Positions 24,835 through 58,820 are shown, counted from the first letter of the stretch. The stretch: DNA of 64,000 nucleotides from an uncultured Bacillota bacterium (GCA_963804645.1 CAWDRG010000009.1:800001-864000); one strand, 5' to 3'. Translations and numbers: made by a program. Notes: a model not told the origin generated them from the letters alone.

Positions 24835-26013
24835 CTACGCGGTCACCGACGCCTTCTGGCGGAAGAACGCGCTCAGGTGATCAACGACATACGCCACATC
24901 GTCCTCTGTCATTTGCGGGTACAGCGGCAACGTCATGATTTCACGAGCCAGGCGTTCCGTCACCGGAAGGGCGCCGGGACGGAGACCCGCCCGATCGCGA
25001 TACGGCGCGTCGAGGTGAATCGGGGTCGGATAGTGCACCTGAGTCTTGATCCCCTGCTGCCCGAGGTACCGGCGAAGCGCTGGGCGGTTCGGCACGCGGA
25101 CCTCGAACCGGACGTACGAATGCTCCGCCCACGCACGCTCCCCAGGAAGCTGGAGCGGGAGGGATCGTTCGGAGATCAGCGTCCGGTACAGCGCGGCCCA
25201 GCGCCGGCGCTGCGCGACCCACGCCGGCAGGCGGCGCAACTGAACCCGCGCGACCGCCGACAGCACTTCAGACTGCCGGTAGTTGAAGCCGACCTCGTCG
25301 TGAGACACGGCGAGGTCCGCGTCCGGTCCTTGGTGATAGTGTTCTCCCCGTCCGTGGTTGGCGAGATTGAACACCCGCCGCACGCGCATCTCGTCGAACG
25401 AGCCGACGGCGCCGCCCTCGCCGCCGCACGTCATCGCCTTGTTCTGCACGAAACTGTAGCACCCCATGTCCCCGAGCGTGCCCACGGATCGCCCCTTATA
25501 GCGGGCGCCGATAGCCTGACATGCGTCCTCGATCACGAACAAGTTGTGGGTCCGCGCCTGATCCAGGATCGGATCGAGATCGACTGGCGATCCCGCGGTA
25601 TGGACGGGCATGATCGCGCGAGTCCGCGGCGTGATCGCGGCCGCGACGGCAGCCGGATCGATATTGTAGGTATCCGGCTCCACGTCGACGAACACCGGCG
25701 TGGCCCCGACGAGCGACACGCAGTGCGCCACGCTGACAAACGTGTTGCTCGGAATGATCACCTCGTCGCCAGCGCCGACGTCGTAGGCGAGCCACGCGAG
25801 GTGCATCGCCGCGGTCCCGTTGGCCAAGTTGGCGATGTGCGGCCGTCTGCCGTCCGGCACGAGGTAGGCGCCGACCTCCTCCTCGAGGGACTTGCCCTCC
25901 GAAGCCTCGTGCGGCGACGTGCGGATGTAGTGCCCTGACTCAAGGACCCGACACGCTGCGTCCTTCATCTCCTGATCGACAAAGGGCCGAAACGCCACGG
26001 TGCGGCTGGCCAT
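24835..26013 (-). CDS. DegT/DnrJ/EryC1/StrS family aminotransferase (copy 1)
   Basis: 'NGTAAMH', 'GDEVI', 'IEDACQA', 'SFVQNK...GEGG', 'GFNYR', 'HYPTPIH'. Confidence 0.92.
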   Translation of the reverse strand: MASRTVAFRPFVDQEMKDAACRVLESGHYIRTSPHEASEGKSLEEEVGAYLVPDGRRPHIANLANGTAAMHLAWLAYDVGAGDEVIIPSNTFVSVAHCVSLVGATPVFVDVEPDTYNIDPAAVAAAITPRTRAIMPVHTAGSPVDLDPILDQARTHNLFVIEDACQAIGARYKGRSVGTLGDMGCYSFVQNKAMTCGGEGGAVGSFDEMRVRRVFNLANHGRGEHYHQGPDADLAVSHDEVGFNYRQSEVLSAVARVQLRRLPAWVAQRRRWAALYRTLISERSLPLQLPGERAWAEHSYVRFEVRVPNRPALRRYLGQQGIKTQVHYPTPIHLDAPYRDRAGLRPGALPVTERLAREIMTLPLYPQMTEDDVAYVVDHLSAFFRQKASVTA

Positions 26014-26086
26014 ACCTGCCTCCTCACTCAACCTGGTTCTGACGACGCCCCCCGCTGGAGGGGTTCCTCAGGCGATCTGCCGATCC

Positions 26087-26110
26087 TTCCATAGTTCGGA
26101 ATTGCGTTGC
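26087..26110. promoter_or_regulatory. putative IclR-type operator
   Basis: TTCC-N7-GGAA-N5-TTGC; same architecture as sites at 32811, 34754 and 43032. Confidence 0.45.
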
Positions 26111-26226
26111 AGAATTAATCTGGATTCGTACGGTTTCGATTGTCCATTCCGTAAGACGCTTCGGGTGAGGCTAGGTACGGAGACCTCGGATCCGCACGCG
26201 GGCGCGCCGTCGCGTTCGCCCCCGGC

Positions 26227-27111
26227 TCACATCCTTCGCAGGCGTGGGTCGAGGGCGTCTCGAAGGCTGTCCCCGACCAAGTTCACCGCCAGCACGAACG
26301 TCAGAATCGCGAACCCAGGGAACGTACTGATCCACCACTGGTATAGGTAGTCGCGCCCAGCGGCCACCATCGAGCCCCACTCGGGCACCTCGGGCGGAGC
26401 CCCGAGCCCGAGGAAGCTCAACGAGGCGAAGGTCAGCATCGCCCGCCCGACGTCCAGCGTGCTCAAGATGACGATCGGCGAAATGGTTCCCGGCAGGACG
26501 TGACAGGTCAACACCCGCCAGTCGGAGGCACCGAGGGCACGCGCCGCCTGCACGTACTCGCGGTCGCGCAGCGAGAGGACTAAGCCGCGCATGTAGCGCG
26601 CGTAGGACGGCCACCACGCGATCATGATGGCGATGACCGCATTGCGAATACCCGCGCCCAGCGCCGCCGTGATGACCATGGCGAGGATGATGGTGGGGAA
26701 GGCGAGCATGAGGTCCGTGAAGCGCATCAGCGCCTCATCGACCTCCCTCACGAACCCCGCCGCGCTTCCGATGACTGACCCGATGATCATCGCCAGCACG
26801 ACCGCCACGACCCCAACGGGGATCGACAGCCGTGATCCGTAGATCACGCGGCTGAGAATGTCGCGCCCGAGTTCATCGGTCCCGAACCAATGAGCGGGCG
26901 ACGGCGGCGCGAGTCGTGCCGGAATGTCCTGGGCCAGTGGGGCGTACGGAGCGATATGAGGCGCGGCCGCGGCCACGACCAACCAGACCACAATCACGCC
27001 GAACCCGCAGAGCGTCAGAGGCGCCCGCACGAGACGACGCGGCAGCGACCGCGCGATCAACCGGCGCCGACGCGGGGCGGAGAGCGACGCGGAGTCAACC
27101 CTGGCGTTCAC
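26227..27111 (-). CDS. ABC transporter permease (DppC-like)
   Basis: 'FGTDELGRDILSR', 'EYVQAARALG', 'PEWG', 'GDSLRDALDP'. Confidence 0.92.
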   Translation of the reverse strand: MNARVDSASLSAPRRRRLIARSLPRRLVRAPLTLCGFGVIVVWLVVAAAAPHIAPYAPLAQDIPARLAPPSPAHWFGTDELGRDILSRVIYGSRLSIPVGVVAVVLAMIIGSVIGSAAGFVREVDEALMRFTDLMLAFPTIILAMVITAALGAGIRNAVIAIMIAWWPSYARYMRGLVLSLRDREYVQAARALGASDWRVLTCHVLPGTISPIVILSTLDVGRAMLTFASLSFLGLGAPPEVPEWGSMVAAGRDYLYQWWISTFPGFAILTFVLAVNLVGDSLRDALDPRLRRM

Positions 27112-27112
27112 C

Positions 27113-28132
27113 TCAGCCCACCCGGATCCGCGGGTCGAACATCGCATAGGCGAGGTCCACCAGCAGATTGACGAAGATGTACACGGCGGCGACCACAATG
27201 CCGACCCCCATGATCGCCGGAAAATCAAGAGATGTCGCGCTGCTGAACGCGTACATCCCCAAGCCGGGCCAGGCGAACACGGTTTCGGTCACCACTGCCC
27301 CCGACAGCAGGTCCCCAAAGCTCAGGCCGATCACCGTAATGACCGGGATGAGGCCGTTGCGCGCCGCGTGCACGAGCATCACACGCCGCCGGCGCAGTCC
27401 CTTTGCGCGCGCCGTGCGGACGTAGTCGTCGCCCAGCGTCTCGAGCATACTGCCGCGCATGACGCGCGTGATCCGGCTCAAGCCAAAGCTCGACAGCACC
27501 AGGGCCGGGAGAATCATGTGGCTGGCCCAGTTCGCGACCACATCCATTCGGCCGGCGAGCAGGCTGTCGATCAGCAAGAACCCCGTCACGAACGGCGGGG
27601 GGACAATCGTCGCATCCAACCGGCCCGGAGACGCGGCGATTCCCAACTGAGCGTAGAAGATGAGCAATGCAACCAACCCGAGCCAGAATACCGGCATCGA
27701 GACGCCCAGCATCGCGACCACGCGAGCCACTTCGTCCACCAGCTTTTCGCGATTGATCGCCGCGAGGATTCCGAGCGGCACGCCGACCACGACGCTGAAA
27801 ATCAGCGCAGGCACTGCCAGCTCGATCGTCGCGGGCAGGTGCTGGCGGAGATCAAAGATCACGGACTGCTTGGTCGAGATCGAGGTGCCCATGTCGCCGT
27901 GCGCGAGGTTCCACAGGTAGATCAGGTACTGCTGGTACAAAGGCCTGTCCAATCCCCAGCGATGACGAAAGGCCGCGACGATCGCGGGGTCGGCCGCGGC
28001 CTGGTCACCGAGGTTCGCTGCGACGGGATCGGCGGGCACGGCGTGAGACAGGACGAAGCTGATCATGGTGATGCCGATCAGCATCGGCACCAGCAGCGTC
28101 ATCCGCCTGAGGATGTAAGCTTGCAGGCCCAC
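27113..28132 (-). CDS. ABC transporter permease (DppB-like)
   Basis: 'PADP', 'DYVRTARAKGL', 'ETVFAWPGLG', 'DPRIR'. Confidence 0.93.
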   Translation of the reverse strand: MGLQAYILRRMTLLVPMLIGITMISFVLSHAVPADPVAANLGDQAAADPAIVAAFRHRWGLDRPLYQQYLIYLWNLAHGDMGTSISTKQSVIFDLRQHLPATIELAVPALIFSVVVGVPLGILAAINREKLVDEVARVVAMLGVSMPVFWLGLVALLIFYAQLGIAASPGRLDATIVPPPFVTGFLLIDSLLAGRMDVVANWASHMILPALVLSSFGLSRITRVMRGSMLETLGDDYVRTARAKGLRRRRVMLVHAARNGLIPVITVIGLSFGDLLSGAVVTETVFAWPGLGMYAFSSATSLDFPAIMGVGIVVAAVYIFVNLLVDLAYAMFDPRIRVG

Positions 28133-28150
28133 AATCAGCCCACGGCCGTA

Positions 28151-28186
28151 CGGGGGCCGGCCCGCGTCAAACGGCGCGGCCCCCCG
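28151..28186 (-). terminator. GC-rich stem-loop between binding-protein and permease genes
   Basis: CGGGGGCCG...CGGCCCCCCG inverted repeat just after the stop; no U-tract, so possibly an mRNA stabiliser. Confidence 0.4.
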
Positions 28187-28195
28187 ACGTGCAGC

Positions 28196-29839
28196 CTAGC
28201 TCTTCCGGACGGCAGCGTAGTCCACAAACCAGGTGCTGGCCAGCGTCACGCCGTGGACATTACTACGGAACGCATACGGTGCCACCGGCTGGTACAGCGG
28301 GGCGTAGGGGCCGATCTGCGCGATCGTGCGATCGACTTGCTGGTACAGGGAGGCACGTCTCGCGGCATCGACTTCGGCCTGCGCCCGGTCCGCGAGGGCG
28401 GAGAGCTGCTGCGCCTCCGGACTCGCGTCCGCGGCCCACCCCGCCCGCTTGCCGACGGTGCGCCCCGGAACAAAGACAAGATAGTCGCTGACGTCCGGAA
28501 AGTCCGCCGCCCAGGCCCAGAGCCCCAACTGATCTTTGCCATCACGGAACTTCTGCAAGGCGACGCTGGACGGCAGGCCGTCCAGGCTGAGTTGGATGCC
28601 GACTTTCGCCAAATCCGCCTGGACCTTCTGCGCGACGATGCCGAACTGCACTCCGTAGTAGACGTTCCCGGTCGAAAATGAAAGCGTGCCGCTGAGATTG
28701 CCCGCGTTGGCTTCGGTGAGGAGTTGCTTGGCCCGGGCGATGTCCGTCTTCGCCGCCTCCGACGGCGGCATCGCGCCGGGCAAATTCGTGGGAATCACGC
28801 CCGCCAGCCGGACGGCGCCGGGGCCGGCCAGGGCAAGCACGCCTTGGTAGTCGATCGCGTACCGCACCGCCTGCTGTACCTTCGGGTTGCTGAAGGGCCC
28901 GCCGACCTGCGGGTTGTTGTTCATGACCACATACAGGAGATTGAGGGCAAGACTCGTGTTCACGGTCACGCCCGGGGAAGTTCGCAGCGTCCGTGCTTCA
29001 TCGGGACCGATCCCCCACGCGATGTCGAGATTGCCTTTCTGGATCAGCAGCTGTTCTGTGGCGGGCTCCACGATATCCTGAACGACCACGCGTGAGATCG
29101 GCGGCGGTCCCCCCCAGTGACTGGGGTTCGCCGTAAGCACCGCCTGCTGGGCCGGCGTATAACTGTCAAGCACATACGGCCCTGAGCCCGCCGAGTGGGC
29201 GTTCAGATAGGACTCGGCCTCGTCTTTCGTCTTCGCATCCGGGCTGGCGTCCCCACCGTGCTGCATCACGTCCTTGCTGTCCACCGCACCGCAAACGGGG
29301 CTTGCGAGAATCGGGATGATGCCAGGATTCGGGGCGTCAAGCCGGAGCACAACGGTCCCCGGATCGGGCGCCACCACCTCCTGCACGCCGTCCAAGAGGA
29401 ACGCACCGTTCCCCTTGATGTACCGGACGCGGTCCAACGACCATTTGAAATCGCTGCTCGTCAGCGGATTGCCGCTCGCGAAGCGCACATTGGGACGGAG
29501 GGTAAATGTGTACTCCTTGCCGTCGGGCGACACCTTCCAGGACGTCGCGAGCGAGGGTTTGGGAGATTTGAGGTCCTCGCCGACGAACGTCACCAGCGAA
29601 TCGTAGATGGCATGGCCGACGTTGCTCGACCCGTTCTCCAGCTGTCGGCCGGGATCCAACGTCTTGATATCGAAGCTGAACGCCACGGTCAGCGTATCCG
29701 CCGCCGCCGATGCGGCCGAGGCCGCCCAGGGCCCGACCGCCCGGTTGGCCAACGCGTATCCGATCCCCCCGCCAGCCAAGCGCAAGAAATCACGACGGTG
29801 AAGCCCGGACGTGATCGCGTGCTTCCCATACTTGTTCAT
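28196..29839 (-). CDS. ABC transporter substrate-binding protein, family 5, Tat signal
   Basis: 'HRRDFL' twin-arginine; 'YTFTLRPNVRFASGNPLT', 'GSGPY'. Confidence 0.93.
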   Translation of the reverse strand: MNKYGKHAITSGLHRRDFLRLAGGGIGYALANRAVGPWAASAASAAADTLTVAFSFDIKTLDPGRQLENGSSNVGHAIYDSLVTFVGEDLKSPKPSLATSWKVSPDGKEYTFTLRPNVRFASGNPLTSSDFKWSLDRVRYIKGNGAFLLDGVQEVVAPDPGTVVLRLDAPNPGIIPILASPVCGAVDSKDVMQHGGDASPDAKTKDEAESYLNAHSAGSGPYVLDSYTPAQQAVLTANPSHWGGPPPISRVVVQDIVEPATEQLLIQKGNLDIAWGIGPDEARTLRTSPGVTVNTSLALNLLYVVMNNNPQVGGPFSNPKVQQAVRYAIDYQGVLALAGPGAVRLAGVIPTNLPGAMPPSEAAKTDIARAKQLLTEANAGNLSGTLSFSTGNVYYGVQFGIVAQKVQADLAKVGIQLSLDGLPSSVALQKFRDGKDQLGLWAWAADFPDVSDYLVFVPGRTVGKRAGWAADASPEAQQLSALADRAQAEVDAARRASLYQQVDRTIAQIGPYAPLYQPVAPYAFRSNVHGVTLASTWFVDYAAVRKS

Positions 29840-30145
29840 TCGTGACCCCCTCTGCGTCGTAAGTACGCGTTCGACTGCTTCAAACGCGCTATCCCCGTGA
29901 GCTCGTAGAATCTTTGCGCGGCGCGACGACTTTCATGAGGCGTGCTGACGGCTTCCAGCAGCGCTCGATCCCTGCCCAGGGAATCGAGCGCGCGCACGCG
30001 GTCCACTCCCGGAGCCGGCGAGGAAACCGGCCTCCGGTCTGGCGTTGCAGTGTGTCGCATCCCGCAGTTCGGCGAATTGCGCCACAAGGCGCCCAACGGC
30101 TGTCCCATCGCAGTGGGCCGCACCAGCCCCTGCCATGCTACCCGG

Positions 30146-31796
30146 CTACGCCTTGCTGATCGTCGAGTAGTCGACGTACCAGCCGGTGTTATAGGTCACG
30201 CCCTTGAGGTTGGACCGGTACGCGATCGGCACCGCTGGCTGGTAGAGTGGAATGTAGGGCCCGTCGGTCGCGAGCCGCCGGTCGATCTCCTGGTACAGAG
30301 CGTCCGCCTTGGCCGGATCCGTTTCGCTCTCCGCCTGCTGCCCCAGTTTGGTGATGTCCTGCGCCTCCGGACTCGAGTCCGGTGCCCATAGAAGGCGCTG
30401 GCCGACGGTTCGCCCGGGAAGGAAGACGAGATAGTCGCTCTGGTCCATGTAATCAGCGAGCCAGCCGCCGAGCCCCATCGGCAGTTTGCCCTGCCGTATT
30501 GCCGTGATCTCGATCGCATACGGCTCGTCGATGAGATTCAGCGTGATGCCGATGGCGGCCAAATCCTGCTGAAGCTTCTGCGCCAGGATTGCCAGGTCGA
30601 GGCCGAACCCTGCGTAGGTGCTCGAGTAGAAGAACTGCCCCTCGAGGTTCGTGAGATTCGCCTGCTGCAGAATGGCTCGGGCGCGCGCTTTGTCCGTCTT
30701 GGGGGCCTCGCTCATCGGCCGCGCGCCGGGGAAACTCGGCGGGATGATGCCGGCCGAGCGGCGGGAGCCCGGCGCCGTCAGCGCCATCACACCCTGGTAG
30801 TCGATCGCGTAGCGAATCGCCTCGCGCACCTTCGGGTTTGCGAACGGTCCGCTGACCTGCGGATTGGTATTGAAGATATGTCCACCACGTTGAGCTGGGG
30901 GAACGAATTCACGGCGACACCGTCGACATGGCGCAGCTGGCGCGCCTGGTCGGCCTGAATGTTGACGGCAATGTCCATGTTGCCCTTTTGCACCAGAAGA
31001 GCCTGCGTGCTCGACTCGTCGACGTTCCTGAATGACGACCCGGTCGAGCGGCGACGGTGCCCGCCAATAATTTGGGTTCTTCGTCAGCACGATTTGCTGG
31101 TCGGGACGTACGAGTCGAGCGTGAACGCGCCCGTCCCTGCGGAGTGCGGAGTTGAGGTACATTTCCGCATTGTCCGTTTCGCCGGCATTCGGCCCGGCGT
31201 CGCCGCCGTGCGCGATAACGACCTTGGAGTCGAGGGGGGCTCAGCGACGGCGTGGTGAGGATCGGGAGCAGTGCTGGCTTGGGTGGCTCAGCTTGATGAC
31301 GAACGTCGTCGGATTCGGCGCGTCTACGCTCGACACGCCGTCAAGGAGCCAGGCGCCGTTCCCCTTGATGTTGATCAGCCGCTCAAATGACCATTTGAAG
31401 TCGGCCGCGGTCAACGGGTTGCCGCTCGACAAATTTGACGTTCGGCCGCAGCTAAAGGTGTACGTGAGCCCGTCCGGCGAGATCGTCCACTGGCTGGCGA
31501 GCGACGGCCGGATCGTTTTCAGATCCGCGCCTGCGAACGTGACCAGCGTGTCGTAGCAGTCACATGGTCGATGTTGTTCGTCGCGTTTTCGAGCGTGCGG
31601 CCCGGATCCAGCGTGTGGATGTTGAGCAGCGTCGCGACGCGTGAGTACCTTGCCGCCGGCGGACTGCCGCGGCCGCCGAGCGACTGTCCGCGACAGATAG
31701 CGCGCCGCCGCCGAGCATCGCCAGCGATGCGGCCACGCCGGTCCGGAGCACCTGCCGCCGGGTCATCCGGAGTCCTGGGCGTTCGTTCAAGAGCAT
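30146..31796 (-). CDS. ABC transporter substrate-binding protein, family 5 (several frameshifts)
   Basis: Fragments 'MTRRQVL', 'TLDPGRTLEN', 'SGNPLTAADFKWS', 'NPKVREAIRYAIDY' are collinear with the paralog at 28196-29839. Confidence 0.85.
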
Positions 31797-31841: not shown

Positions 31842-32666
31842 CTAGGGCATTGACATGGGACGCATGACAAGCGACCATCCACCATCGATCAGAATGTCCT
31901 GGCCGGTGAGGTACGCGGACGCGTCGGATGCCAGAAACACGCACAACCCCACCATGTCCTCCGGCTGCGACACCCGGCCGAGTCGGGATCAGATCGATCG
32001 TCATCTTGGATCGGGCCGACGTCCGGTCGGCCGGGCGCTCCGGCGACGCGATCGAACCCGGCGAAATCGCGTTGGCCGTGATCCCATCGGCCGCCCATTC
32101 GACCGCGAGCCCGCGCGTGAGCGCCATGACGGCGCCCTTCGACGCGCTGTACGAGGTCCGCCGGACCACCCCTTTCCGCGCCGAGATCGAGGCGATGTTG
32201 ATGATCCGGCCCTTGTGCTGACGGCGCATAAATGGGTAGACTGCCTGGCAGGCGTGCAAGACGCCGCGGACGTTCACGCCCATGATCCAATCGAAGTCCG
32301 CCGCGGTGTGCTCCGCCGCCGTCTTGTCGACCCTCACCGCGCCGTTATTGACCAGGACATCGATCTGCCCCCATCGATCGGCGGCGAAGGCTGCCATCCG
32401 CTCGCAGGCCGCGGGGTCGCTCACGTCGGCCGCGCACGCTCCGCGCTCCATCCCTCTTTGCGCAGCGCGGCCGCCGCCGCCTTGCCACTGTCCGCATCGC
32501 GGTTGGCGATGAGCACGTGGGCTCCCGCGCCCGCGAGCCCGCGGCTCAGTCCCAATCCAAGGTTGCGGTTGCCGCCGGTCACAATCGCCACTCGACCGGC
32601 AAGCGAAAAGAGATGCAGGGTCGGCAGATGCGGCGCTGGCGATCCGGAGCGATCGGCGGCGATCAT
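31842..32666 (-). CDS. SDR family oxidoreductase (frameshifted)
   Basis: '[10 protein letters not shown]', 'DVLVNNG', 'YSASKG', '[11 protein letters not shown]' in successive frames. Confidence 0.85.
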
Positions 32667-32810
32667 AGGTCGGTCTGGTCCTCCCTCCGAGATGCGGTGC
32701 CAGCCATGACAGATGCCGTTCCCTATTTGGTGCGCAGGATTGGCTTTCCTCCCGATACCGACAGCCAAACGAAGATGTTTCGAAAGACCATTTATTTGGT
32801 CGGCAGATTC

Positions 32811-32834: not shown

Positions 32835-32882
32835 GGAACCGCGTGGCTGTCGCACCGCATCGCCGCCAGGTGGGAGGCGCCA

Positions 32883-33655
32883 ATGCCGGAATCCGACTCC
32901 GTCAAGACCGTCAAACGGTCCCTCGACATTCTGAACCTGCTTGCTGAGGACGGACGGCAATTGGGTGTCATCGAACTGAGCAAGTGCCTCAAAACGAGCC
33001 AAAGCACGGTGTACCGGATCCTCTCAACGCTCGCAGACGAGGGCTACGTCACGCAGGATCCGCGAACGGAAAAGTACCGCCTCGGGCTGCAGGGCATCAT
33101 CCTCGCCGGGGCCGCCCTCAACCAGCTCGAGATCCGCAAGCAGGCGATCTCGATCCTCGAGCGCCGTGGTTTCGGCCACCAGCTACAACGCCAATCTCGG
33201 CATCCTGCACCGGCAGCACATGATGTACATCGCCAGGATCGACGGCCCGAAGAGCGCGCGGATGTACACGCCCATCGGGCGGCGCGCGCCCGCGCACGCG
33301 ACCGCACTCGGCAAGGCGATCCTGGCGTTTTTGCCGGCCGACGCAGCGGCGCCGATCGTGGACGGAGCGGCAGCCTGATCGCCTGCACGCCGCACACGAT
33401 CATCGACCCGGCGGTCCTCGCCGAAGAACTGCGCCGGATCAGGGAGCGCGGCTACGCGGTCGACCGGGAAGAGCTCCTCGCCGGCATCTGCTGCGTCGCC
33501 GTGCCGGTACGCGGGCCGTCCGGGAGGCGTCGAGGCGGCGCTCAGCCTGTCGGCGTCCGTCTTTCAACTGCGCGAGGAGGACACGGAACAACTACGCCCG
33601 CGTGCTCCAGGACGCGGCCTACGAACTGTCCGGGCGCCTCGGGTACCCGGTTTGA
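32883..33655 (+). CDS. IclR family transcriptional regulator (frameshifted)
   Basis: 'SVKTVKRSLDIL...STVYRILSTLADEGYV', 'HATALGKAILA', 'IRERGYAVDREE...CVAVP'. Confidence 0.88.
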
Positions 33656-34644
33656 GTGTCGGCGTCCAAGCCGCGCGGTGCGCGTGATCACGACGGGCGG
33701 GACGATCGCGGGAAAACGGCTGCCGTCCGGGACCGTGGCCCCCGGCCTCGGCCCGCCGAACTGCTGGCCCGCATTCCGATGGTAGGCGAGTATGCCGAGT
33801 GCGAGGTGGACATTGGCTGGAGGTGCCGAGCAGCGCCATCGGGTTCCCGCAGATGCTCGACCTGGCCGCGGCGGGTGACGGGCGCGCTCGCGGACCCGGG
33901 GCTCGCGGGCGTCGTGATCACCCACGGGACTGGCACGCTGGAGCAAACGGCCTATTTCCTCGACGTCACGTTGGGGCACGAACGGCCCGTCGTGGTGACC
34001 GGCGCGCTGCGGAATCCAACGCTGCCGAGCGACGACGGCCCTGCCAACCTGTCTGCATGCGATTCAGGTCGCCGCGTGCGAGCGCTCACGCGGTCTTGGG
34101 GTCCTGGTGGTCATGAACGGCACGATTCATTGTGCGCAGGGATGTGACCAAAACCAGCCCGGCGAATCCCGCGGCCTTTCAGTCGCTCGAATTCGGCCCA
34201 CTCGGCGCAGTCGACGAGGACTATGTGTTTTTCGCGCGGCGGCCGTTCAGACGGCCGCGGGCCGTGCTGCCGGCGGCCATCAACGCGCGGGTCGAGCACC
34301 TTCCGTTCGCGGCCGACCCAAGCGACACGCTCCTCCGGGCCGCGATCGAGGGCGGCGCCCGCGGCCTGGTGATCGAATGCGGGCGGATGAACGCGTCGTA
34401 CGTCGAGCTGTTGAAGGACGCGATGGCCCGCGGGATCACCGTCGTCGTCGCGAACCCGTACCCTACGGGCCGCCTGCAGCGGAATACCTACCGCCACGAG
34501 GGCGGCGAGTCGCACCTCTTGTCGCTCGGGATGATCTTCGCCGGCACTTCGGGCCTCAAGGCCCGGGTCAAGCTCGTCGCGCTCCTAAGTGCGGGCCTCA
34601 GCTGTCGCGAAATCAGAGACCTGTTCCACGCGGAGTGGCAGTAG
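33656..34644 (+). CDS. asparaginase family protein (frameshifted)
   Basis: 'ITTGGTIA', 'VITHGTGTLEQTAYFL', 'PVVVTGALR...DGPANL', 'VTKT...AFQS...GPLG'. Confidence 0.85.
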
Positions 34645-34778: not shown

Positions 34779-34861
34779 CTCCGCGTACTGTCGCTCCGTC
34801 TGAGTGACATCATCGTTCCATGATGCCGTCCCAGCGGCGGTCTTTGGGAGAAGGTACGCCG

Positions 34862-35860
<999 letters not shown>

Positions 35861-39057: not shown

Positions 39058-39282
39058 TCAGCCTCCGGCATGCGGCGCCGCGTCGTCCGCCGGCGCCGGT
39101 GGTACGAAGCCGTGTGGAACCGCGGGATCGCCGGGGACGGCCTCCCGCGCGCGCTCGAGCCCGTCCCGGTGCGCCGCGACGTTCTGCACGATCGCGGCGA
39201 GGTCGTCGTCGTCCACGGCGATCCCCCGGCGGGCAAGCTCGGCGCGGATCTCGTCTGTCCGGTCCTGCCCGCCGCGCGTCAT
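39058..39282 (-). CDS. small (74 aa) GatC/AtzG-like amidase partner, putative
   Basis: 'MTRGGQDRTDEIRAELARRGIAVDDDDLAAIVQNVAAHRDGLERAR...P...F.P'; ATGA overlap with the amidase stop. Confidence 0.65.
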   Translation of the reverse strand: MTRGGQDRTDEIRAELARRGIAVDDDDLAAIVQNVAAHRDGLERAREAVPGDPAVPHGFVPPAPADDAAPHAGG

Positions 39283-40639
39283 GCCGCGGCCTCCGCGAGC
39301 GCCGGGCGGCGCGTGTGCCAGGGCGTCGCCTGCTCGTACGCATGCGCGATGCGGAACAGCGACGCTTCGTCGAAATACCGGCCCGCCAGCTGCATGCCGA
39401 CCGGCAGCCCCGCGGAGGTGAAGCCGCAAGGTACCGTGAGCGCCGGATGCCCCGACATGTTGAACTGCCGCGTGCCCCAGCTCGTGTCCGGGGGCTCGTC
39501 CAGCTGCATCTCGACCGAAAACGCGGGCTGCGGCAGCGTCGGCGTCACGATCGCGTCCACCCGCCCGAGCACCGCGTTGACCTGATCGGTCCAGGCGACG
39601 CGGACGCGCGCCGCGTCCTCGTACTCGCCGCTCGTGTAGCACGCACCCGACGCGATCCGCCGGCGGGTGCGCGTGCCGTAGTCGCGCGCGCGCTCGCGCA
39701 GGCCCGCCGCGTGCAGGCCGTAGGCCTCCGCCATGATGAGAACCCCGCCCGGCGCGGTGACGTGCGCGGCGAGCCGGAGATCGACCGGCTCGAGCCGTGC
39801 GCCGAGGGACTCCAGCTGGCGCAGCGCCGCGCGCAGCGCCGCGTCGACCTCGGGATCCAGCCCCTCGTAGTAGTGCTGCCGGGGGACGCCGAGGACCATG
39901 CCCCGGATCCCCGCCTGCAGCCCCTCGGCGAAGTCGGGGACGGGCGCCCTGGCGCTGGTCGGATCGGCCGGGTCGTGCCCTGCCATGGCGGTGAGGAGCA
40001 GCGCGCAGTCGGCCGCGCTGCGTGCCATCGGGCCAACGTGGTCCATGCTCCAACTGAGCGGCAGGAGGCCGTTGCGGCTCACGCGCCCGTAGGTCGGCTT
40101 GAGACCGACGATCCCGCAAAAACTCGCCGGGACCCGGATGGAGCCGCCCGTGTCCGAACCGGTCGCCGCGACCGCCAGGCCCGCCGCGAGCGCGTTGGCC
40201 GAGCCGCCGCTCGACCCGCCGGCGTAGCGGCCGAGATCCCACGGGTTGCGGTGCACGCCGAACAGGTCCATCGTGCCGCAAGCGAACTCGGTGGTGTTCG
40301 TCTTGCCGAGCAGGATCATGCCGGCGTCGCGGAGCCGCCGCACGTGGGTCGCGTCGCGGTCCGGTACGTACTCGAGCAGGCAGCGCGAATGCGCGGTGGT
40401 CCGCACGCCCCGCGTCAGGCTCACGTCCTTGTGCGCGACCGGCAGGCCGTGCAGCCGGCCGCGGCGGCGGCCGGTCCGCGCGATCTCCTGCTCCGCCGCG
40501 CGCGCCTCCGCGAGAGCCCCCTCACCGCAGACCGTGATGTAGCTCGCCAGCCGGCCGTTGTACCGGTCGATCCGCCCGAGGAACGCCCGGACGATGTCGA
40601 CGGGCGAGACCTGGCGCTCGTCCAGCAGGCGCCCGAGCT

Positions 40640-42956
<2,317 letters not shown>

Positions 42957-43111: not shown

Positions 43112-43280
43112 CCCGAGATCTCGGAATGGGGCTCCATGATCGCATCGGCCCGGAACAACCTCGCCCAGTGACGGATCGCAGACCTTCCTCGGGCTCGCGA
43201 TCTCGATCCTGGTGCTCGCATTCAACGTGCTGGGCGACGGGCTCCGGGATCTGCTCGATCCGCGGGTTCGGTCGCGGTAG
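43112..43280 (+). pseudogene. relic 3' end of a DppC-like ABC permease
   Basis: 'PEISEWGSMIASARNNLAQ*.../GLAISILVLAFNVLGDGLRDLLDPRVRSR*'. Confidence 0.8.
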
Positions 43281-43321
43281 CGGAGCGTGTGAAGGAGGAC
43301 GTACTTGGCGAGAGACGACGT

Positions 43322-45307
43322 ATGATCGGGCTCCGGCTCGGCATTGAAACCGGCGGCACCTTCACCGACTGGGTGCTGTCCAGGGGCGACCATATCGAGG
43401 CGACCGGCAAAGTCATGTCCACGCCGGCGGAGCCGGAGCGCGCGGTGCTGGCGGCGGTGGCCGAATGCGGCGTGCCGCCGTCCGAGATCGCCGCGCTGAT
43501 CCACGGCTCGACCGTCGTGACGAACGCGGTGCTCGAGCACAAGGGCGCCCGCACGTGCCTCGTCACCACGAAGGGCTTCCGCGACGTGCTGCTGATCCAG
43601 CGGCAGGCCAAGACGCGCCTGTTCGACCTGTTCTACCGGCAGCCGGAGCCGCTCGTCTCCCGCGACCACATCATCGAGGCCGACGAGCGCATGGGGCCCG
43701 ACGGCGCCGTCCGGCGGCCGCTGCGGGACTTTGCCTTCGTCGAGCATGTCGCGCGGCTGGTCCGCGAGGAGCGCATCCAGTCGGTCGCGATCTGCTTTCT
43801 CCACTCGTACGCCAACGCCGTGCACGAGATCGCCGCCGAAGAGGCGCTCGCCGCGGCGCTGCCCGGGGTGGCCGTCACCCGGTCCTCCGACGTCCTGCCG
43901 CAGTTTCGCGAGTACGAGCGCACCAGCACATCCGTCATCAGCGCCTACGCGAAGCCCGTCGTGGACCGCTACCTGTCCCGCCTCGAGGACCGGCTGCGCG
44001 CAGCGAGACTTCCGCGGGCCCGTCACCATCGTGCAGGCCAACGGCGGCACCATTCCGGCCCACGCGATCCGGCGCCACGCGGCGAAAATGATTCTGTCGG
44101 GGCCCGCGGCCGGCGTCGTCGGCGCCACCACGGCCGCGCTCGAGGCCGGTTTTCTCAACACGATCACCTTCGATATGGGGGGGACCAGCACCGATGTGTG
44201 CCTCGTGACGGACGGCCGGCCGGGCGTCACGCGCGAGTACAAGATCGCCGGGTTGCCGCTCAACGTCCCGATGATCGACATCACCACCGTGGGCGCCGGC
44301 GGCGGCAGCATCGCCGACGTGGACCGCGGCGGCATTCTCAAGGTCGGCCCGGAGAGCGCGGGCGCGGACCCGGGCCCGGCGGCGTACGGCAAGGGCGGCA
44401 GCGCGCCTCACCGTCACGGACGCGAACGTCCTGGTCGGGCGCATCCGCCCCGAGGCGTTCTTCGGCGGGCGGCTGCGGCTCGACGCGGCGGCCGCCGAGG
44501 CGGCGCTCGGCGCCCTGTCCGACCGCGTGGGGCTGCCGCGCCTCGAGACGCTCGAGGGCGTGCTGCGCCTCGTCAACGTCACGATGGCCCAGGCCGTCCG
44601 GCTTGTGTCCGTCGAGCGCGGACACGACCCGCGCGACTACACGATCGTGGCGTACGGCGGCTCCGGGCCGCTGCACGCGGTGGCGGTGGCGTCCGACCTC
44701 GGCATCTCGCGCGTGCTCGTGCCGGTCAACCCCGGCCTCGTCTCCGCGTACGGCCTGCTGCTGGCCGATACGCGCCAGGACTTCTCGATCACGCGCGTCA
44801 TGCTGGCGGCGCGCGTCGCCGACGAGGACGTCGCGGCGCTGTTCGCCGACCTCGAGGCCCAGGCGCACCGGGAGTTCCAGTCCTACGAGCGTCCGTGGGC
44901 GGAGGTGACGTGCCGCCGGGAAATGGACATGCGATACGTCGGCCAGGCCTACGAGATCGGCGTGCCGTGCGACGGGATGCCGGTCGCGGCGGCGGTCGAG
45001 GCGTTCCACGAAGCGCACCGGGTCCGCTACGGGCATGCGGTCCGCGAGCAGGACGTGGAAGTGGTCGGGTACCGGCTGATCGCCGCCGCGCCCTCGCCGC
45101 TGCGCGCGATCCGTCCCGCGCCGGGCCGGCGCGCCGGCCCGGCGCCCCGCGCCGAGGGCTACCATCCCCGAGAGCGAGATCGACGCCGGCAGCCGCCTCC
45201 CCGGGCCGTGCGTGATCGAAGAGCCGACGGCGACGACGTACGTGCCGGACGGCTGGTCGGCCCGCGCCGACCGGCTCGGCAACCTCATCCTGGAGGCCGG
45301 CGCATGA
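43322..45307 (+). CDS. hydantoinase/oxoprolinase subunit A (frameshifted)
   Basis: 'ETGGTFTD', 'HGSTVVTN', 'LSGPAAG', 'DMGGTSTD', 'GPESAGADPGP', 'YGGSGPLH' in successive frames; ATGA overlap with subunit B. Confidence 0.88.
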
Positions 45308-46960
45308 ACCCGGTGACGCTGTCGGTGATCGGCCACGCCTTCGCGGCGACCGCGGAGGAGATGGGCGTCAACCTCTACCGCTCCGCGCACTCGACCATCG
45401 TGCGCGAGGTCCGCGACATCGCGACGGCGGTCCTCGATCCGCGCGGCAATACCGTCGCGATCGCCAACTACATCCCGCAGCTGCTGAACGCGATCGACCC
45501 CGCGGCCGCCGCGATCGCCGAGGAGTACGAGTTCGCGTCGCTCCAGGACGGCGAGGCGTTCGTCGTCAACGACCCGTTCCACGGCGGCCAGCACATCAAC
45601 GACGTGCTGCTGTTCACGCCGATCCGGCTCGACGGCCGGCTGCTCGGCGTCAGCTGCGCCAACGTCCATCACCTGGACCTCGGGGGCGGCGCAGCGGCCA
45701 GCAACGCGCGGGCGACCGACGTGTTCCAGGAGGGCATCGTCTTCCCGCCGATGCGGATCCCGCTCGACGACGAGTGGCGGTCCTCGCCGTTCGGGAAGTT
45801 CTTCGGCGCCAACGTGCGCGCGCCCCGGACCGTGCTGGCGGATTTCGACGCGCAGATCGCCGCGTGCCGTACCGGCGAGTCCCGCGTGCGGGCGCTCGCC
45901 CGGAAATACGGGGTGGACGCGATCGCGGAGTTCATGGCCGACGTCCAGGACTACGGCGAGCGGATCTCCCGGCAGGCCATCGCCGCGATCCCGGACGGCG
46001 AGTACTACGGCGAGGCGTACATGGAGGACGACGGCACCGGCGCGGGCCCGTTCTACGTGCGCGCGACCGTCCGCATCGCCGGGAGCGACATGACGATCGA
46101 CTTTGCCGGCACGGACCCGCAGGCGCGGGGCTTCATCAACGTGCCGTGGGGCTCGACGCTCTCGAGCGTCCGGACGACCGTCGCCGCGATCCTCGGGATC
46201 ACGCATCTGCTGGTCAACGCCGGCAGCATGCGGCCGGTCCACGTGACGGCGCCGCTCGGCTGCCTGCTGAACCCGCGCTGGCCGGCCGCCACCCGGGCGC
46301 GGACCAGCGCCTGCTATAAGATCTTCGACGCGGTCAACATGGCGCTCGCGCCCGTGCTGCCGAGGCAGCGTGATGGCGCCGGGCTTCGACGCCCAGACCG
46401 GCATCTCGTTCGGCTACCGCGCGGGCGGCCACGCCCGCATCCTCTCCGAAGTGCTCGGCGCCGGGAACGGCGCGCTGTGGTGCCAGGACGGCGCCGACGG
46501 CATGATCATGCCGCTGACGAACGGCCAGAACACGCCCGTGGAATCGGTGGAAATCGAGTTCCCGTTCCTCGAGATCCTGCGCTACGGCCTCGTCCCCAAC
46601 TCCGGCGGCGACGGCGAGTATCGCGGCGGCCTCGGCATGGAGCGCGCGTACCGCATCCTCGAGGAGGACGTCACGTTCGGGCTGCACTCCGATCGGCACC
46701 GCCACGGCGCGCCGGGCCTCTTCGGCGGGGGCACGGCGGCGCCGGGCGCGTGCGTGCTGGTGCGCGACGGGACGGCCCGAGTGCTCGGGTCGAAAGTGCA
46801 CGAATCGCTGCGGGCGGGGGACCGCCTGATCGTTCGCTCGGGCGGCGGCGGAGGATACGGCCGCCCCGAGCACCGCGCCCCCGAACGCATCGAGCAGGAC
46901 GCGCGCGAGGGCCGGCAGGTCCACGGCGCGAGCGTTCCCTCGCCGGGCGATAACCTCTAG
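45304..46960 (+). CDS. hydantoinase B/oxoprolinase family protein (frameshift near 46365)
   Basis: 'MNPVTLSVI', 'NDPFHGGQHIND', 'HHLDLGG', then 'GEYRGGLG', 'GGGGYG'. Confidence 0.88.
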
Positions 46961-47098
46961 CGACGCGGTGGCTCAGACCCCGAGGCAGATCGCGAGAAGC
47001 AGAGCCACCCGACGCGGAGTCCACGATGAGGTCCCGAACCTTCCTGCCTCCGCGCCGGGATGCAGACGTCGCAGGTGCGCGCGCCGGCGCCCCGTCCG

Positions 47099-47261
47099 CT
47101 ACGGCGGCGCGGGGGCCGCCGGCGCGGTCTCGTCCGGCGAAGTGGCCGATGACCGCGTCGATGACGTAGGCCAGTTTGTCGTCGCTCATGTGCGGGCCGA
47201 CGGGCAGCGACAGCGTCTCGGCGCACAGCCGCTCGGCGACTGGAAACTGCCCCGCCCGCGT
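47099..47261 (-). pseudogene. duplicated 3' fragment of a DegT aminotransferase gene
   Basis: '[43 protein letters not shown]'; DNA nearly identical to about 48205-48341. Confidence 0.82.
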
Positions 47262-47503
47262 ACGGTTGATGGAACCGAAGCGCCTTCGATATCGCTCGAC
47301 CGTACGCCCGTCCTCCGGAAGGAGCGGTGCGCACTTCCTCTGGCTCAGTCGGACGAAAATCTTGTGCTCGTATTCTCGCCGTCCGAGTGCCTCGAAGGCA
47401 ACGCATTCGCGCCCGCCCTGTGGACCGCCGGCCCACGTGCCCGCGTACGGAAGCCGTTGCGCGTTGGAACGTCCGACTACCTCGCGGCGATGGAATGATT
47501 CGG

Positions 47504-47899
47504 TCACGTCCCCAGAAACGCGATGATATCTACCTCGACGCGCAGCTCCGGACTGCCGAGTCCTGCCACGATCAGACCGGTGTGAGGCGGCCGATGGTCG
47601 CCGAAATGCTCGAACCGCACCTGGCTTACGCCGGGAGAATCAGCCCGGTCGACGAGATACGTGGTCACTTTTACAACATCACCCCACCCCGCACCCGCGG
47701 CCGCAAGCACCCGACCAATGTTCGCATACACTTGCCGCGCCTGTGCAACGGCATCTCCGGGGCCCACTATGTTCCCCTGTGCGTCGCGACCGACTTGGCC
47801 CGCAAGGTACAGTGTGTCACCCGCGCGAATGGCGGCGACATAACTCGGCGTCCGATGCACGTCCTCGGGTTGAATAATCGTGCGGACGGGTCGATTCAA
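47504..47899 (-). CDS. RidA/YjgF family protein
   Basis: 'AGDTLYLAGQV', 'DVVKVTTYL', 'PPHT', 'RVEVDIIA'; GGAGG RBS before TTG. Confidence 0.88.
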   Translation of the reverse strand: MNRPVRTIIQPEDVHRTPSYVAAIRAGDTLYLAGQVGRDAQGNIVGPGDAVAQARQVYANIGRVLAAAGAGWGDVVKVTTYLVDRADSPGVSQVRFEHFGDHRPPHTGLIVAGLGSPELRVEVDIIAFLGT

Positions 47900-48182
47900 C
47901 AGTGCACCTCCGTCATGTGTCTGATGGCCGATTGCGTGATGCTCCGTCGATGGGCGCGGCGCTCCCTCGAGAAACGCCGACTCAGACGTGCCCGTCATCT
48001 TGTTCGCGTGCCACCCCGCCGTCAGCGGAGACCGACGTGGCACACGAGCCGAAGCCGATCGCTCGTCAGCTGGCATCCCGCGCCAAAGAGGGCGCGTTTG
48101 GCAGTGTCGCAACTAGACAGGACCGCACTGCGACCCACCGGGGCTGGTACGTCACCGATACCGGGGGCGGGCGGTCTGTCCG

Positions 48183-49344
48183 TTACGGCCGGACGGCCGC
48201 CGCCGTCTCGCGCCCGGCGAAGTGGCCGATGACCGCGTCGGCGACGTAGGCCAGCTTGTCGTCGCTCATGTGCGGGCCGACGGGGAGCGACAGCGTCTCG
48301 CTGCACAGCCGTTCGGCGACCGGGAACTGCCCCGCCCGCGTGCTGTATTGCTCCATCACCGGCGTCAGCAAATGGAGCGGCGTGGGATACAGGGCGATCG
48401 CCTCAATCCCGCGCTCGGCCAGCGTCTCTCGCAGCGCGTCCCGCTCGGGGCTCCAGACGGTGTAATGGAGGTACGACGGCGCCGCCCACGGTCGCGCGGG
48501 CGGCAGCCGCAGGGGCACCCCGGCCTCCTGAAAGCGCGCGGTATAATACGCGGCCGCCCTCGCCGGTGCGCCACATACTGCGGCAGGCGCCCCAGGTCGA
48601 TGCGGCCGAGCGCCGCGCAGAGCTCCGTCATGTGCATGTTGTAGCCGACCCAGCGCTGGTCGTACCACTGGGTGTCGGTCCGCCGGACGAAGCTGATCCG
48701 CTCATCCCGCACCCGCCCCTGATCCCGGAGGCTCGACAGGTCCTCCGCGAGCGCGCGGTCGTCCGTGACCGCGCCGCCGCCGGGCCCGAAAATCGTGATC
48801 ATCTTCCCGAAAAGCTGAAGAACCCCATGTCGCCGATGCCGCCGGCCCGCCGGCCCTTGTACTCGGCCCCGAGCGCGTGCGCGGCGTCCTCGATCACGAA
48901 CAGGCCGTGCCGCTCTGGCCGTCTCCATGATCGGGTCCATGTCGCACGGAAACCCATAGTCGTGAATGGCGAAGACCGCCTTCGTCCGAGGCGTGACCGC
49001 GGCCTCGACCGCGTCCGGCCGGATGTTGGACGTCTCGGCGTCGACCTCCACAAATACAGGCGTGGCGCCGCGCTTGACGACGGCGGCCAGCACGCCGACG
49101 TAGCCGTTGGCCGGCAGGATGCACTTCGTCGCCCGGGCCGATGCGCTTCGCGTCCAGCGCGAGCAGGCAAATCGAGGTGCCCGAGTTCGCCGTGACGCCG
49201 TACCGGCGGCGGCACCACGCGGCCAGTTCCGCCTCAAAGCGCTCGGTTTCTTCCCCGCCGTAGGTCTTCCCGGTCTCCAGCACTTCCAAGCGCCTTGCTC
49301 CGCTGCTCGGGCGTCGGGGCCATCAACCGGTTCGGAATGTTCAT
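48183..49344 (-). CDS. DegT/DnrJ/EryC1/StrS family aminotransferase (copy 6, frameshifted; close paralog of copy 2)
   Basis: '[18 protein letters not shown]', 'EDAAHA', 'FFSF/GKMIT', '[12 protein letters not shown]', 'LSLPVGPHM'. Confidence 0.88.
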
Positions 49345-58816: not shown

Positions 58817-58820
58817 GGCG

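Follow-up and report, generated by a model that had tools for sequence, protein, structure and literature searches.

What do six aminotransferase genes of the DegT family do among genes for import and hydrolysis? DegT-family enzymes are textbook agents of biosynthesis, supplying the amino sugars of O-antigens, S-layers, and antibiotics. The question is raised by a 64-kb stretch of DNA from an uncultured Bacillota bacterium (CAWDRG010000009.1:800001-864000 of assembly GCA_963804645.1, which comprises 5.3 Mb in 22 contigs), called the window below and meant in its full length. An earlier note on this DNA had placed the six genes in a catabolic, nonbiosynthetic setting. This placement is supported by the gene content of the window, by the contrast with the DegT genes on contig C5 of the same genome, by the separate clade to which the window DegTs belong, and by arrays in which DegT genes follow importer genes; a catabolic or salvage role is well supported by this context. 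We hold with moderate confidence that the locus, conserved, IclR-regulated, and coupled to importers, serves catabolism or salvage in an uncultured lineage of soil and peat, and that a lineage-specific DegT clade acts there on imported low-molecular-weight amino compounds with sugar-, sugar acid-, or cyclitol-like skeletons.

Six DegT paralogs, their clade, and their importers

Pfam scans of the long open reading frames (ORFs) of the window (144 of at least 110 aa between 21.7 and 53 kb and 92 of at least 130 aa in the rest, taken at E<=1e-5) recover the DegT_DnrJ_EryC1 domain (PF01041) at six loci on the minus strand, with 310-376 bits for intact copies, or summed over pieces, against a curated cut-off of 19.8. 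Four copies are intact (24838-26013, 36735-37880, 40643-41797, and 41793-42956) and the other two are broken up, 37904-39047 into 2 frame pieces and 48201-49344 into 4 or more. All six start positions given in the earlier note (26013, 37880, 39047, 41797, 42956, and 49344) were recovered, those inspected having plausible ribosome-binding sites, and the DegT fragment that it had listed besides is real, duplicating the 3' end of DegT_E. These genes and the two lying among them are as follows.

24838-26013, minus strand: DegT_F-type paralog, intact (PF01041, 339.9 bits, profile positions 4-359), the last gene of an SBP2-permB-permC-DegT array
36735-37880, minus strand: DegT_A, intact (PF01041, 325.2 bits)
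37904-39047, minus strand: DegT_B, in two Pfam pieces (profile positions 5-186 and 187-359), with one extra base near 38420-38424
39061-39282, minus strand: 74-codon gene for a predicted amidase partner, unannotated and missed earlier, its ATG overlapping the amidase TGA
39282-40673, minus strand: amidase-signature amidase (GatA/AtzE-like), intact (PF01425, 371 bits)
40643-41797, minus strand: DegT_C, intact (PF01041, 310.5 bits)
41793-42956, minus strand: DegT_D, intact (PF01041, 376 bits), heading the five-enzyme operon
47083-47261, minus strand: copy of the DegT_E 3' end (the "fragment"), matching 48167-48341 at 85% identity over 179 bp (PF01041 profile positions 323-359)
48201-49344, minus strand: DegT_E, in four Pfam pieces, with at least 4 frame changes in this assembly

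DegT_D, DegT_C, the amidase, DegT_B, and DegT_A follow one another in that order, and the proposal that four DegT genes and an amidase form a tightly packed operon is borne out by their spacing: DegT_D and DegT_C overlap by 8 nt, the GTG of DegT_C at 41797 overlapping the DegT_D stop; DegT_C and the amidase overlap by 34 nt; and a gap of 20 nt separates DegT_B from DegT_A. The ATG of DegT_D at 42956 stands after AGGAGGG and that of the F-type gene at 26013 after GAGGAGG, and GGGAGGGG precedes the ATG of DegT_A at 37880.

The cluster is syntenic and intact in G002, a genome of the same genus (87-91% nucleotide identity), and in G015 and G013 of another genus (75-86%), and is also present in G001, G003, G011, G012, and G017. 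The phylum, small and uncultured, is sampled by 94 genomes, all of one order; orthologs of DegT_D with at least 71% identity occur in 17 of them, belonging to families f1, f3, and f5 (16 of 93 without the unpublished genome G054), and array-bearing genomes tend to be larger ones. Searches of a plasmid collection with the operon and the left flank returned a 45-bp match only, or nothing. At the protein level, DegT_A is 94% identical to its G002 ortholog, and the F-type DegT is 75% identical to DegT_F of G002 and falls in the F clade. DegT_E, which tblastn recovers from its start at 49344 as five pieces in three frames, is intact in G002, G015, G013, and G017.

The lysine and the aspartate that we take to bind pyridoxal 5'-phosphate (PLP) and to hold its pyridine nitrogen, and that presumably tell an aminotransferase from a ColD-type dehydratase, are kept in all six G002 orthologs. 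They are likewise present in the window copies of the F type (YSFVQNK and VIEDACQ), A, B (lysine motif FAFSNK), and D; in the window DegT_C the pattern search matched the aspartate motif only (VIEDIAH), the lysine being seen in its G002 ortholog (TSF-ARK). Judged by this retention of both residues, all six paralogs appear to be catalytically competent. Pairwise identity among them is 35-44%, except for A and E (63%), and such divergence, together with the kept catalytic residues, fits six specificities.

The genome holds 11 full-length DegT genes. A maximum-likelihood tree of 29 DegT sequences, 21 of the cluster type (from the window, G002, G012, G020, and G028) and 8 others (the five C5 copies, one from contig C2, one at C9:743k, and one extra G012 copy), resolves the 21 into six paralog groups, each conserved across genera, and splits them from the 8 others with support of 98/96; the C9:743k protein lies outside the six-paralog clade on a long branch. 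The earlier note had proposed a DegT phylogeny with characterised members and a check of neighbourhood conservation in related genomes; a separate clade and conserved neighbourhoods did emerge, in a tree limited to the genome's and its relatives' own copies, with no characterised enzyme included. On contig C5, all 5 DegT genes lie in glycan loci, with NTP_transferase, CTP_transf_3, Polysacc_synt_2, glycosyltransferase, Bac_transf, Polysacc_synt flippase, NeuB, WbqC, and GNAT genes as neighbours. None of these partners accompanies the window DegTs, and the statement that the window lacks a nucleotidyltransferase, an NDP (nucleoside diphosphate)-sugar dehydratase, a glycosyltransferase, and a flippase agrees with the Pfam scans at E<=1e-5, which argues that the window DegTs do not stand in a setting of glycan or antibiotic biosynthesis. 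The full-length DegT on contig C2 (G000:C2:176491-177546, locus L108) adjoins a Gfo/Idh/MocA gene and a polyketide-cyclase/SRPBCC gene and has no glycan assembly genes beside it.

Comparison with characterised enzymes assigns the paralogs to no known type. The NCBIfam equivalog cut-offs for PseC, ArnB, WecE, DesI, RfbH, and LegC are reached by none of the four G002 paralogs scanned (C, D, E, and F), the best score being 258.4 bits for PseC against a cut-off of 423.5. The best solved matches of DegT_A, C, D, E, and F are 7b0d, DesV, QdtB, and perosamine synthase (180-263 bits). The 7b0d chain bears the label "glutamine--scyllo-inositol transaminase"; no paper for 7b0d or 7b0m was found in the open-access literature.

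The linkage to import rests on ATP-binding cassette (ABC) transporter genes of the Opp/Dpp type, of which the cluster holds these:

26230-27228, minus strand: permC, Opp/Dpp-type ABC permease
27116-28132, minus strand: permB, Opp/Dpp-type ABC permease
28199-29839, minus strand: SBP2, family-5 solute-binding protein (SBP_bac_5, 257.7 bits)
30149-31762, minus strand: SBP1, family-5 solute-binding protein, in two SBP_bac_5 pieces, its frame broken by many window-specific 1-bp indels

The permeases carry BPD_transp_1 with OppC_N or BPD_transp_1_N and are 66-68% identical to those of G002. SBP2 is 53% identical to SBP1 of G002, an intact protein of 548 aa with a twin-arginine export signal (MTRRQVLRTGAAASLAAL); the nearest solved chains of SBP2 are 8upi, AapF (7kz8), and HbpA (6ofq), with weak matches to the opine binders 6tfq (100 bits) and AgaA (6hlx, 97 bits). 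In the window, the SBP2-permB-permC block and the F-type DegT have left their syntenic places and are joined in one array at 24.8-29.9 kb. Across the window and the related genomes, for which latter the coordinates come from tblastn and are approximate, a DegT gene stands directly behind binding-protein and permease genes in 9 same-strand arrays from 8 genomes of 4 families. The SBP-permB-permC unit is followed by DegT_D-DegTx-DegT_C in four genomes (G035, G051, G053, and G055), by DegT_D and a DegT_A-like gene in G020, by DegT_F in the window, G028, and G035 (extended-SDR genes, of the short-chain dehydrogenase/reductase [SDR] class, then follow in G028 and G035), and by DegT_B in G050. The binding proteins found in these arrays share only 23-53% identity with SBP1. 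Separate importer-plus-DegT cassettes with such divergent binding proteins fit several related substrates better than one.

Partner enzymes and flanking genes

The neighbours named in the earlier note (importers, an SDR, a 2-hydroxyacid dehydrogenase, a PIG-L protein, an asparaginase-like enzyme, hydantoinases, and RidA) were all found in the Pfam scans. Besides the genes listed above, the cluster contains:

31845-32760, minus strand: classical SDR (gluconate 5-dehydrogenase/KduD-like; adh_short) in three frame pieces, 84-96% identical to G002
32874-33652, plus strand: IclR-family regulator, HTH_IclR and IclR_C in two frames, broken in this assembly
33625-34641, plus strand: type II asparaginase-like amidohydrolase, N- and C-terminal domains in different frames
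34820-35857, plus strand: D-isomer-specific 2-hydroxyacid dehydrogenase, intact (2-Hacid_dh_C, 195.9 bits)
35891-36619, plus strand: PIG-L-fold protein, GalB-like, intact (PF02585, 94.4 bits), a few bases after the dehydrogenase gene
43184-46957, plus strand: HyuA/HyuB-type ATP-dependent lactamase/hydantoinase pair (Hydant_A_N, Hydantoinase_A, and Hydantoinase_B) in four frame pieces
47507-48112, minus strand: RidA-family gene (Ribonuc_L-PSP, 90.8 bits)
49479-50814, plus strand: MmgE/PrpD-family protein, MmgE_PrpD_N and _C in two frames, 60-82% identical to G002
50849-52240, minus strand: cyclic amidohydrolase (D-hydantoinase/dihydropyrimidinase type), intact (Amidohydro_1)

The amidase has GatA (4wj3, 329.2 bits) as its nearest solved chain and falls below the NCBIfam cut-offs of AtzE (284 against 461) and GatA (343 against 481). 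Its K82, S154, and S178 do not vary in any of 5 orthologs, and we take them to be the catalytic triad, with the spacing of 24 residues that the family usually shows. What looks like a gap of some 220 nt behind the amidase is filled by the translationally coupled 74-codon gene, which is conserved in all 5 related loci examined. The 74-aa product matches no Pfam or NCBIfam model, those of GatC and AtzG included. In a direct pairwise comparison, it is 35% identical (E 5e-4) to a 61-aa ORF behind a paralogous amidase on the same contig (67% identical; G000:C9:667.9-669.3 kb), although a tblastn search of that locus with the 74-aa ORF gave nothing convincing. A complex prediction for the amidase and the 74-aa protein scores 0.90, against 0.00 for the best of 3 controls, with runs agreeing in at least 82% of contacts and a predicted local distance difference test (pLDDT) value of at least 73 for the partner; the mark applied is reached by 116 of 157 solved complexes and by 2 of 215 mismatched pairs. 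The pass may reflect no more than likeness, because structures of GatA-GatC and AtzE-AtzG have been solved. By position and predicted contact, the 74-aa protein would be a small amidase partner of the GatC/AtzG kind. The amidase was also considered as a marker of the system beyond this lineage and rejected as such: homologs of at most 63% identity sit in other contexts, and an amidase-seeded scan with one genome per species gave 79 loci, only 5 of which (L013-L016 and L020), all from close kin, have a DegT array.

Three further hydrolases are candidates for the opening of C-N bonds. The G002 ortholog of the asparaginase-like enzyme has no signal peptide and scores 186 bits on TIGR00520 against a cut-off of 314; the G002 HyuA and HyuB orthologs are nearest to the alpha and beta subunits of caprolactamase, below cut-off; and the G002 cyclic amidohydrolase passes the TIGR02033 cut-off (395.7 against 393.25 bits). 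The SDR of G002 is nearest to the gluconate 5-dehydrogenase, glucose 1-dehydrogenase, and KduD models, the IclR ortholog of G002 to BhcR (190.7 bits) and KdgR (184.5 bits), and the 2-hydroxyacid dehydrogenase to the PGDH and glyoxylate reductase models, all of them below cut-off.

The PIG-L protein finds its best solved chain in 5cgz, the 4-oxalomesaconate hydratase GalB (138.8 bits over residues 6-235, about 45% identity), and scores 64.9 bits against diacetylchitobiose deacetylase. It carries AHAADF where GalB has AHSADF and where the aligned deacetylase has an HPDD-type motif. By sequence, it is most like the hydratase and not the deacetylase; its use as evidence for an N-acetyl-sugar deacetylase was dropped, the HPDD motif being missing.

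The RidA gene is inserted between HyuB and DegT_E, which adjoin directly in G002, G015, and G013. Within 46962-48341, it is flanked by the two copies of the DegT_E 3' end (47083-47261 and 48167-48341). The gene shows 73.6% nucleotide identity to a RidA gene in the G012 cluster, and in G012 a RidA gene adjoins a seventh, different DegT. The clusters of relatives add extended SDRs directly after DegT_F, IolG-like Gfo/Idh/MocA enzymes, a PTE-family lactonase, and an HpaI/GarL-like aldolase, and further creatininase- and isochorismatase-family hydrolases, an alpha/beta hydrolase, M20 peptidases, and class I/II aminotransferases.

No ABC ATPase domain (ABC_tran) was found in the Pfam scans of the window or beside the importers of related clusters. 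As it is absent near all three Opp-type systems of the window (10.6-14.1, 26.2-29.8, and 30.1-31.8 kb), their ATPases must be encoded elsewhere, and are perhaps shared.

The flanks of the cluster hold other genes. A second array of catabolic type occupies 6779-16975 on the plus strand (HyuA, HyuB, a family-5 binding protein, two permeases, an RraA-like aldolase, an octopine/nopaline-dehydrogenase-family protein, and RidA) and looks like a cluster for the use of opine-like or N-substituted amino acids. At 17317-18222 on the plus strand, an insertion sequence (IS)-type transposase (DUF772 and DDE_Tnp_1) lies at a step in G+C content near 18 kb, from 0.60-0.62 (1-17 kb) to 0.65-0.73, the other parts of the genome that were fetched having 0.67-0.72; by this step, it is the left flank and not the DegT cluster that looks foreign. 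The right flank, 55636-63998 on the minus strand, encodes a Gfo/Idh/MocA protein, a third HyuB/HyuA pair, an M24 peptidase-family protein, a xylose-isomerase-like TIM barrel, and an enolase-superfamily protein. The whole window has four HyuB and three HyuA genes.

Frameshifts: assembly error or decay

Between 30 and 51 kb, the reading frame is broken in at least nine genes (SBP1, SDR, IclR, asparaginase, DegT_B, HyuA, HyuB, DegT_E, and PrpD). The flank genes scanned are mostly whole; an endonuclease/exonuclease/phosphatase-family gene at 53080-54058 on the plus strand is split over two frames, probably by another assembly indel. In alignments with two relatives, the indels prove to be specific to the window and mostly of a single base: about 25 fall within 30.1-34.7 kb, 34.8-43.0 kb has one uncompensated coding indel only (near 38420), and HyuA/B has four window-specific 1-base insertions (44003, 44405, 45174, and 46369).

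Taken as real, these frameshifts would make the cluster a decaying remnant in this genome, its pathway lost here and kept by the relatives. Their very number in 30.1-34.7 kb, with more in HyuA/B, DegT_E, and PrpD, is consistent with decay, as are the rearrangement of the cluster relative to its kin (the importer and DegT_F moved, RidA inserted) and the IS element at 17.3-18.2 kb. However, the "broken" genes carry their window-unique substitutions mainly at the third codon position (first/second/third: asparaginase, 11/10/60; HyuB, 14/16/73; DegT_E, 15/13/71; IclR, 6/3/15), those of SBP1 being less skewed (43/25/73), and about ten indels per kb with so few first- and second-position changes do not fit neutral decay. 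The extra base of DegT_B, moreover, is missing from two short-read contigs from public peat metagenome runs, one of 2008 nt (4 differences, 99.8% identity) and one of 856 nt (no difference, 100%), and such contigs follow the relatives' frame at 4 of 4 comparable places among those listed (38424, 43182, 48559, and 48803). Contigs covering the worst segments diverge from the window by 2-5%, so that there only very close strains are shown to have open frames, and at about 95-98% identity they may represent another strain, a point in favor of decay; stretches that the contigs cover thinly or with divergent sequence were not used as evidence. We consider decay unlikely, and most of the indels are very probably artefacts of assembly. 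The cluster is accordingly treated as functional in the population, and for annotation the lesson is that apparent pseudogenes of this genome are largely assembly errors.

Competing readings and known systems

The route that we envisage would begin with exported family-5 binding proteins and Opp-type permeases importing several related substrates, in a modular layout that provides every importer with between one and three DegT genes of its own. For the next step, the opening of carboxamides, lactams, and further C-N bonds, there are four candidates: the asparaginase-like enzyme, the HyuA/B lactamase, the cyclic amidohydrolase, and the amidase together with the 74-aa protein. A given DegT paralog would move one kind of carbon-bound primary amino group to a 2-oxo acid, releasing the nitrogen in an amino acid and leaving a keto intermediate. 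Such intermediates could be carried toward central metabolism by the SDR, the D-2-hydroxyacid dehydrogenase, and the GalB-like hydratase, with extended SDRs, Gfo/Idh/MocA enzymes, the lactonase, and an HpcH-type aldolase also available in the relatives. The sequence data establish the gene content, its conservation, the spacing of the operon, the catalytic residues, the distinct clade, and the link to importers; we infer to which class the substrates belong (sugar, sugar acid, or cyclitol), which way transamination runs, and how the steps follow one another. The KduD/gluconate-5-dehydrogenase-like SDR and the KdgR/BhcR-like regulator are partners of sugar type.

Several observations weigh against this route. 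Among solved structures, those closest to the five paralogs searched are NDP-sugar aminotransferases of biosynthesis (DesV, QdtB, and perosamine synthase, 180-241 bits), along with 7b0d, and the extended SDRs of the relatives belong to a family that usually handles NDP-sugars, yet they score only 80-105 bits on the GalE and RmlB models (cut-offs 262-365). GatA/AtzE-like amidases and asparaginases hydrolyse primary amides, and so would expose no amine for transamination; the GalB-like PIG-L protein is not evidence for N-acetyl sugars; and hydantoinases, the M20 peptidase, class I/II aminotransferases, RidA, and PrpD equally suit amino acid or ureide chemistry. The Pfam scan found no glycosidase, sugar kinase, or isomerase inside the window cluster. 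To these must be added the missing ABC ATPase and the nine genes out of frame in this assembly.

The amide-bond hydrolases admit two possible readings, and the second of them leads to a different account of the whole. Three of these enzymes resemble those for glutamine (GatA), asparagine (asparaginase), and 5-oxoproline-type lactams (HyuA/B). Either the substrates bear carboxamide or lactam groups, as uronamides and glycated glutamine, asparagine, or pyroglutamate do, or the trio clears 2-oxoglutaramate and its lactam after glutamine-dependent amination. On the latter account, the DegTs would aminate with glutamine or asparagine as donor, and the by-products (2-oxoglutaramate, its lactam 2-hydroxy-5-oxoproline, and 2-oxosuccinamate) would be cleared away by the oxoprolinase-like HyuA/B together with the asparaginase-like enzyme and the amidase pair, which would render amination irreversible by a logic of the glutaminase II type. 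Some DegT members do use glutamine, and 2-oxoglutaramate cyclises; the GatA-like primary-amide hydrolase and its partner sit between DegT_C and DegT_B, and the asparaginase homolog and the HyuA/B pair are constant members of the cluster. However, the paralogs are nearer to glutamate-using NDP-sugar aminotransferases than to the glutamine-using BtrR type, the known omega-amidases belong to the nitrilase family and not to the amidase-signature family, catabolism is the usual setting of operons that open with importer genes and an IclR regulator, and the Pfam scans of the window found neither an exporter nor a scaffold-forming enzyme. We therefore regard amination as improbable.

A further account dispenses with carbohydrates. 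Omega- and beta-amino acids and diamines would be released from lactams, hydantoins, and amides opened by HyuA/B, the D-hydantoinase, and the amidases, the DegTs would replace class III omega-transaminases, and the GalB-like hydratase and the 2-hydroxyacid dehydrogenase would process the organic acids. The affinity of HyuA/B to caprolactamase, the D-hydantoinase model that passes its cut-off, the hydratase and the PGDH/glyoxylate-reductase-like dehydrogenase, and the proximity of RidA, PrpD, the M20 peptidase, and class I/II aminotransferases would all suit it. It is nevertheless an improbable account, for we know of no DegT-family enzyme with an acyclic amino acid as its main substrate, and partners of sugar type (extended SDR, Gfo/Idh/MocA, lactonase, and keto-deoxy-acid aldolase) recur in the relatives.

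The earlier note had gone further than the catabolic setting and supposed that these enzymes remove various amino groups from an imported polyaminated sugar or cyclitol, aminoglycoside- or rhizopine-like; in the specific form of this idea, a single such molecule (an aminoglycoside, 2-deoxystreptamine, or a rhizopine-like compound) would lose its amino groups to the six enzymes in turn. Six divergent and catalytically intact paralogs in one region would be expected of such a scheme, the label of 7b0d, for which no paper was found, would agree with it, and 2-deoxy-scyllo-inosose aminotransferases are also matched. The supposition is not borne out, and we think it very improbable: the relatives separate the paralogs into importer cassettes with different binding proteins, the BtrR-type inosose enzymes (2c7t) score 123-153 bits, below DesV and QdtB (200-241 bits), the amidase is GatA/AtzE-like, and the PIG-L protein is hydratase-like. 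Pfam finds in 24.8-52.3 kb none of the genes of rhizopine or aminoglycoside catabolism (inositol dehydrogenase, Rieske demethylase, inositol pathway enzymes, and glycosidases, the last of which pseudo-oligosaccharides would need), nor a sugar kinase; the window does hold a Rieske gene (19947-20534) and a Gfo/Idh/MocA gene (55636-56844), both of them situated beyond the conserved cluster. The open-access literature yielded no description of such a pathway.

Ordinary biosynthesis of a glycan (O-antigen, S-layer glycan, or capsule) or of an antibiotic sugar, to which family membership and the best solved matches DesV, QdtB, and perosamine synthase would point, is largely refuted by context and almost certainly wrong, given that a nucleotidyltransferase, glycosyltransferase, priming transferase, and flippase are absent from the window and from the related clusters examined, that the same genome holds complete glycan loci elsewhere with DegT genes of their own, and that the window DegTs form a separate clade linked to importers.

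Returning to the importer-coupled catabolic or salvage system, we suggest, more tentatively, that it may represent a first catabolic branch of the DegT family, in which cassettes of an importer and an aminotransferase take up free amino sugars, amino sugar acids, or aminocyclitols and remove carbon-bound amino groups from them by transamination; deoxy-amino sugars from dead microbial cell envelopes would be an example of a source. A search of the open-access literature, subscription journals lying outside it, found no described catabolic DegT pathway or multi-DegT importer cluster. If this suggestion is true, the DegT family has been recruited for breakdown or salvage as well, soil organic nitrogen of a large and little understood pool could be mineralised directly by this route, and the enzymes and binding proteins of the cluster would be candidates for freeing nitrogen from amino sugars beyond glucosamine and galactosamine, a step of the soil nitrogen cycle without known genes. 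The six paralogs and the binding proteins can be directly expressed and screened, and transaminases acting on free keto or amino sugars would be useful biocatalysts.

Compared with known systems, the window DegTs share their Pfam family, fold, and PLP lysine and aspartate with DesV (2oga), QdtB (3frk), GDP-perosamine synthase (3bn1 and 3dr4), and 7b0d. However, DesV, QdtB, and perosamine synthase come from biosynthetic loci and act on nucleotide-activated keto-sugars, whereas the window DegTs stand behind ABC importer genes without genes for activation or transfer. The BtrR-type inosose aminotransferases are DegT-family enzymes that act on non-nucleotide cyclitol ketones, which makes free ring ketones possible substrates of the family; StsC and the rhizopine enzyme MosB are further inosose aminotransferases of aminocyclitol pathways. 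The BtrR-type enzymes are biosynthetic, and the window cluster has neither a cyclitol synthase nor inositol catabolic genes. The amidase and the 74-aa protein recall AtzE-AtzG (6c62) and the GatA-GatC part of GatCAB (4wj3 and 2df4), in which a Lys-Ser-Ser amidase has a tiny partner of the kind predicted for the window; unlike in those systems, GatB is absent from the window and the small protein matches no GatC/AtzG Pfam model. With GalB, the PIG-L protein has an end-to-end alignment and the AH(S/A)ADF motif in common, but it reads GARGES where GalB has GERGES, a change of glutamate to alanine, and its gene is paired with a D-2-hydroxyacid dehydrogenase gene, without an adjoining gallate dioxygenase, tautomerase, or aldolase.

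Glycated and opine-type amino acid conjugates are catabolised by the Salmonella fra locus, with its asparaginase homolog FraE, and by the Agrobacterium genes for agropinic and mannopinic acid, with Opp-type AgaA/MoaA and a HyuA/B-like lactamase. These systems, which are not known to contain a DegT enzyme, cut the sugar-nitrogen bond by oxidases or kinase-deglycase pairs, enzymes that the Pfam scan did not find in the window. What they have in common with the window is that a regulated catabolic locus unites an asparaginase homolog with a binding protein of the Opp type and a lactamase of the HyuA/B type. The families assembled in the window (DegT, amidase signature, PIG-L fold, HyuA/B, and family-5 binding proteins) are all known; it is their arrangement that is unusual.

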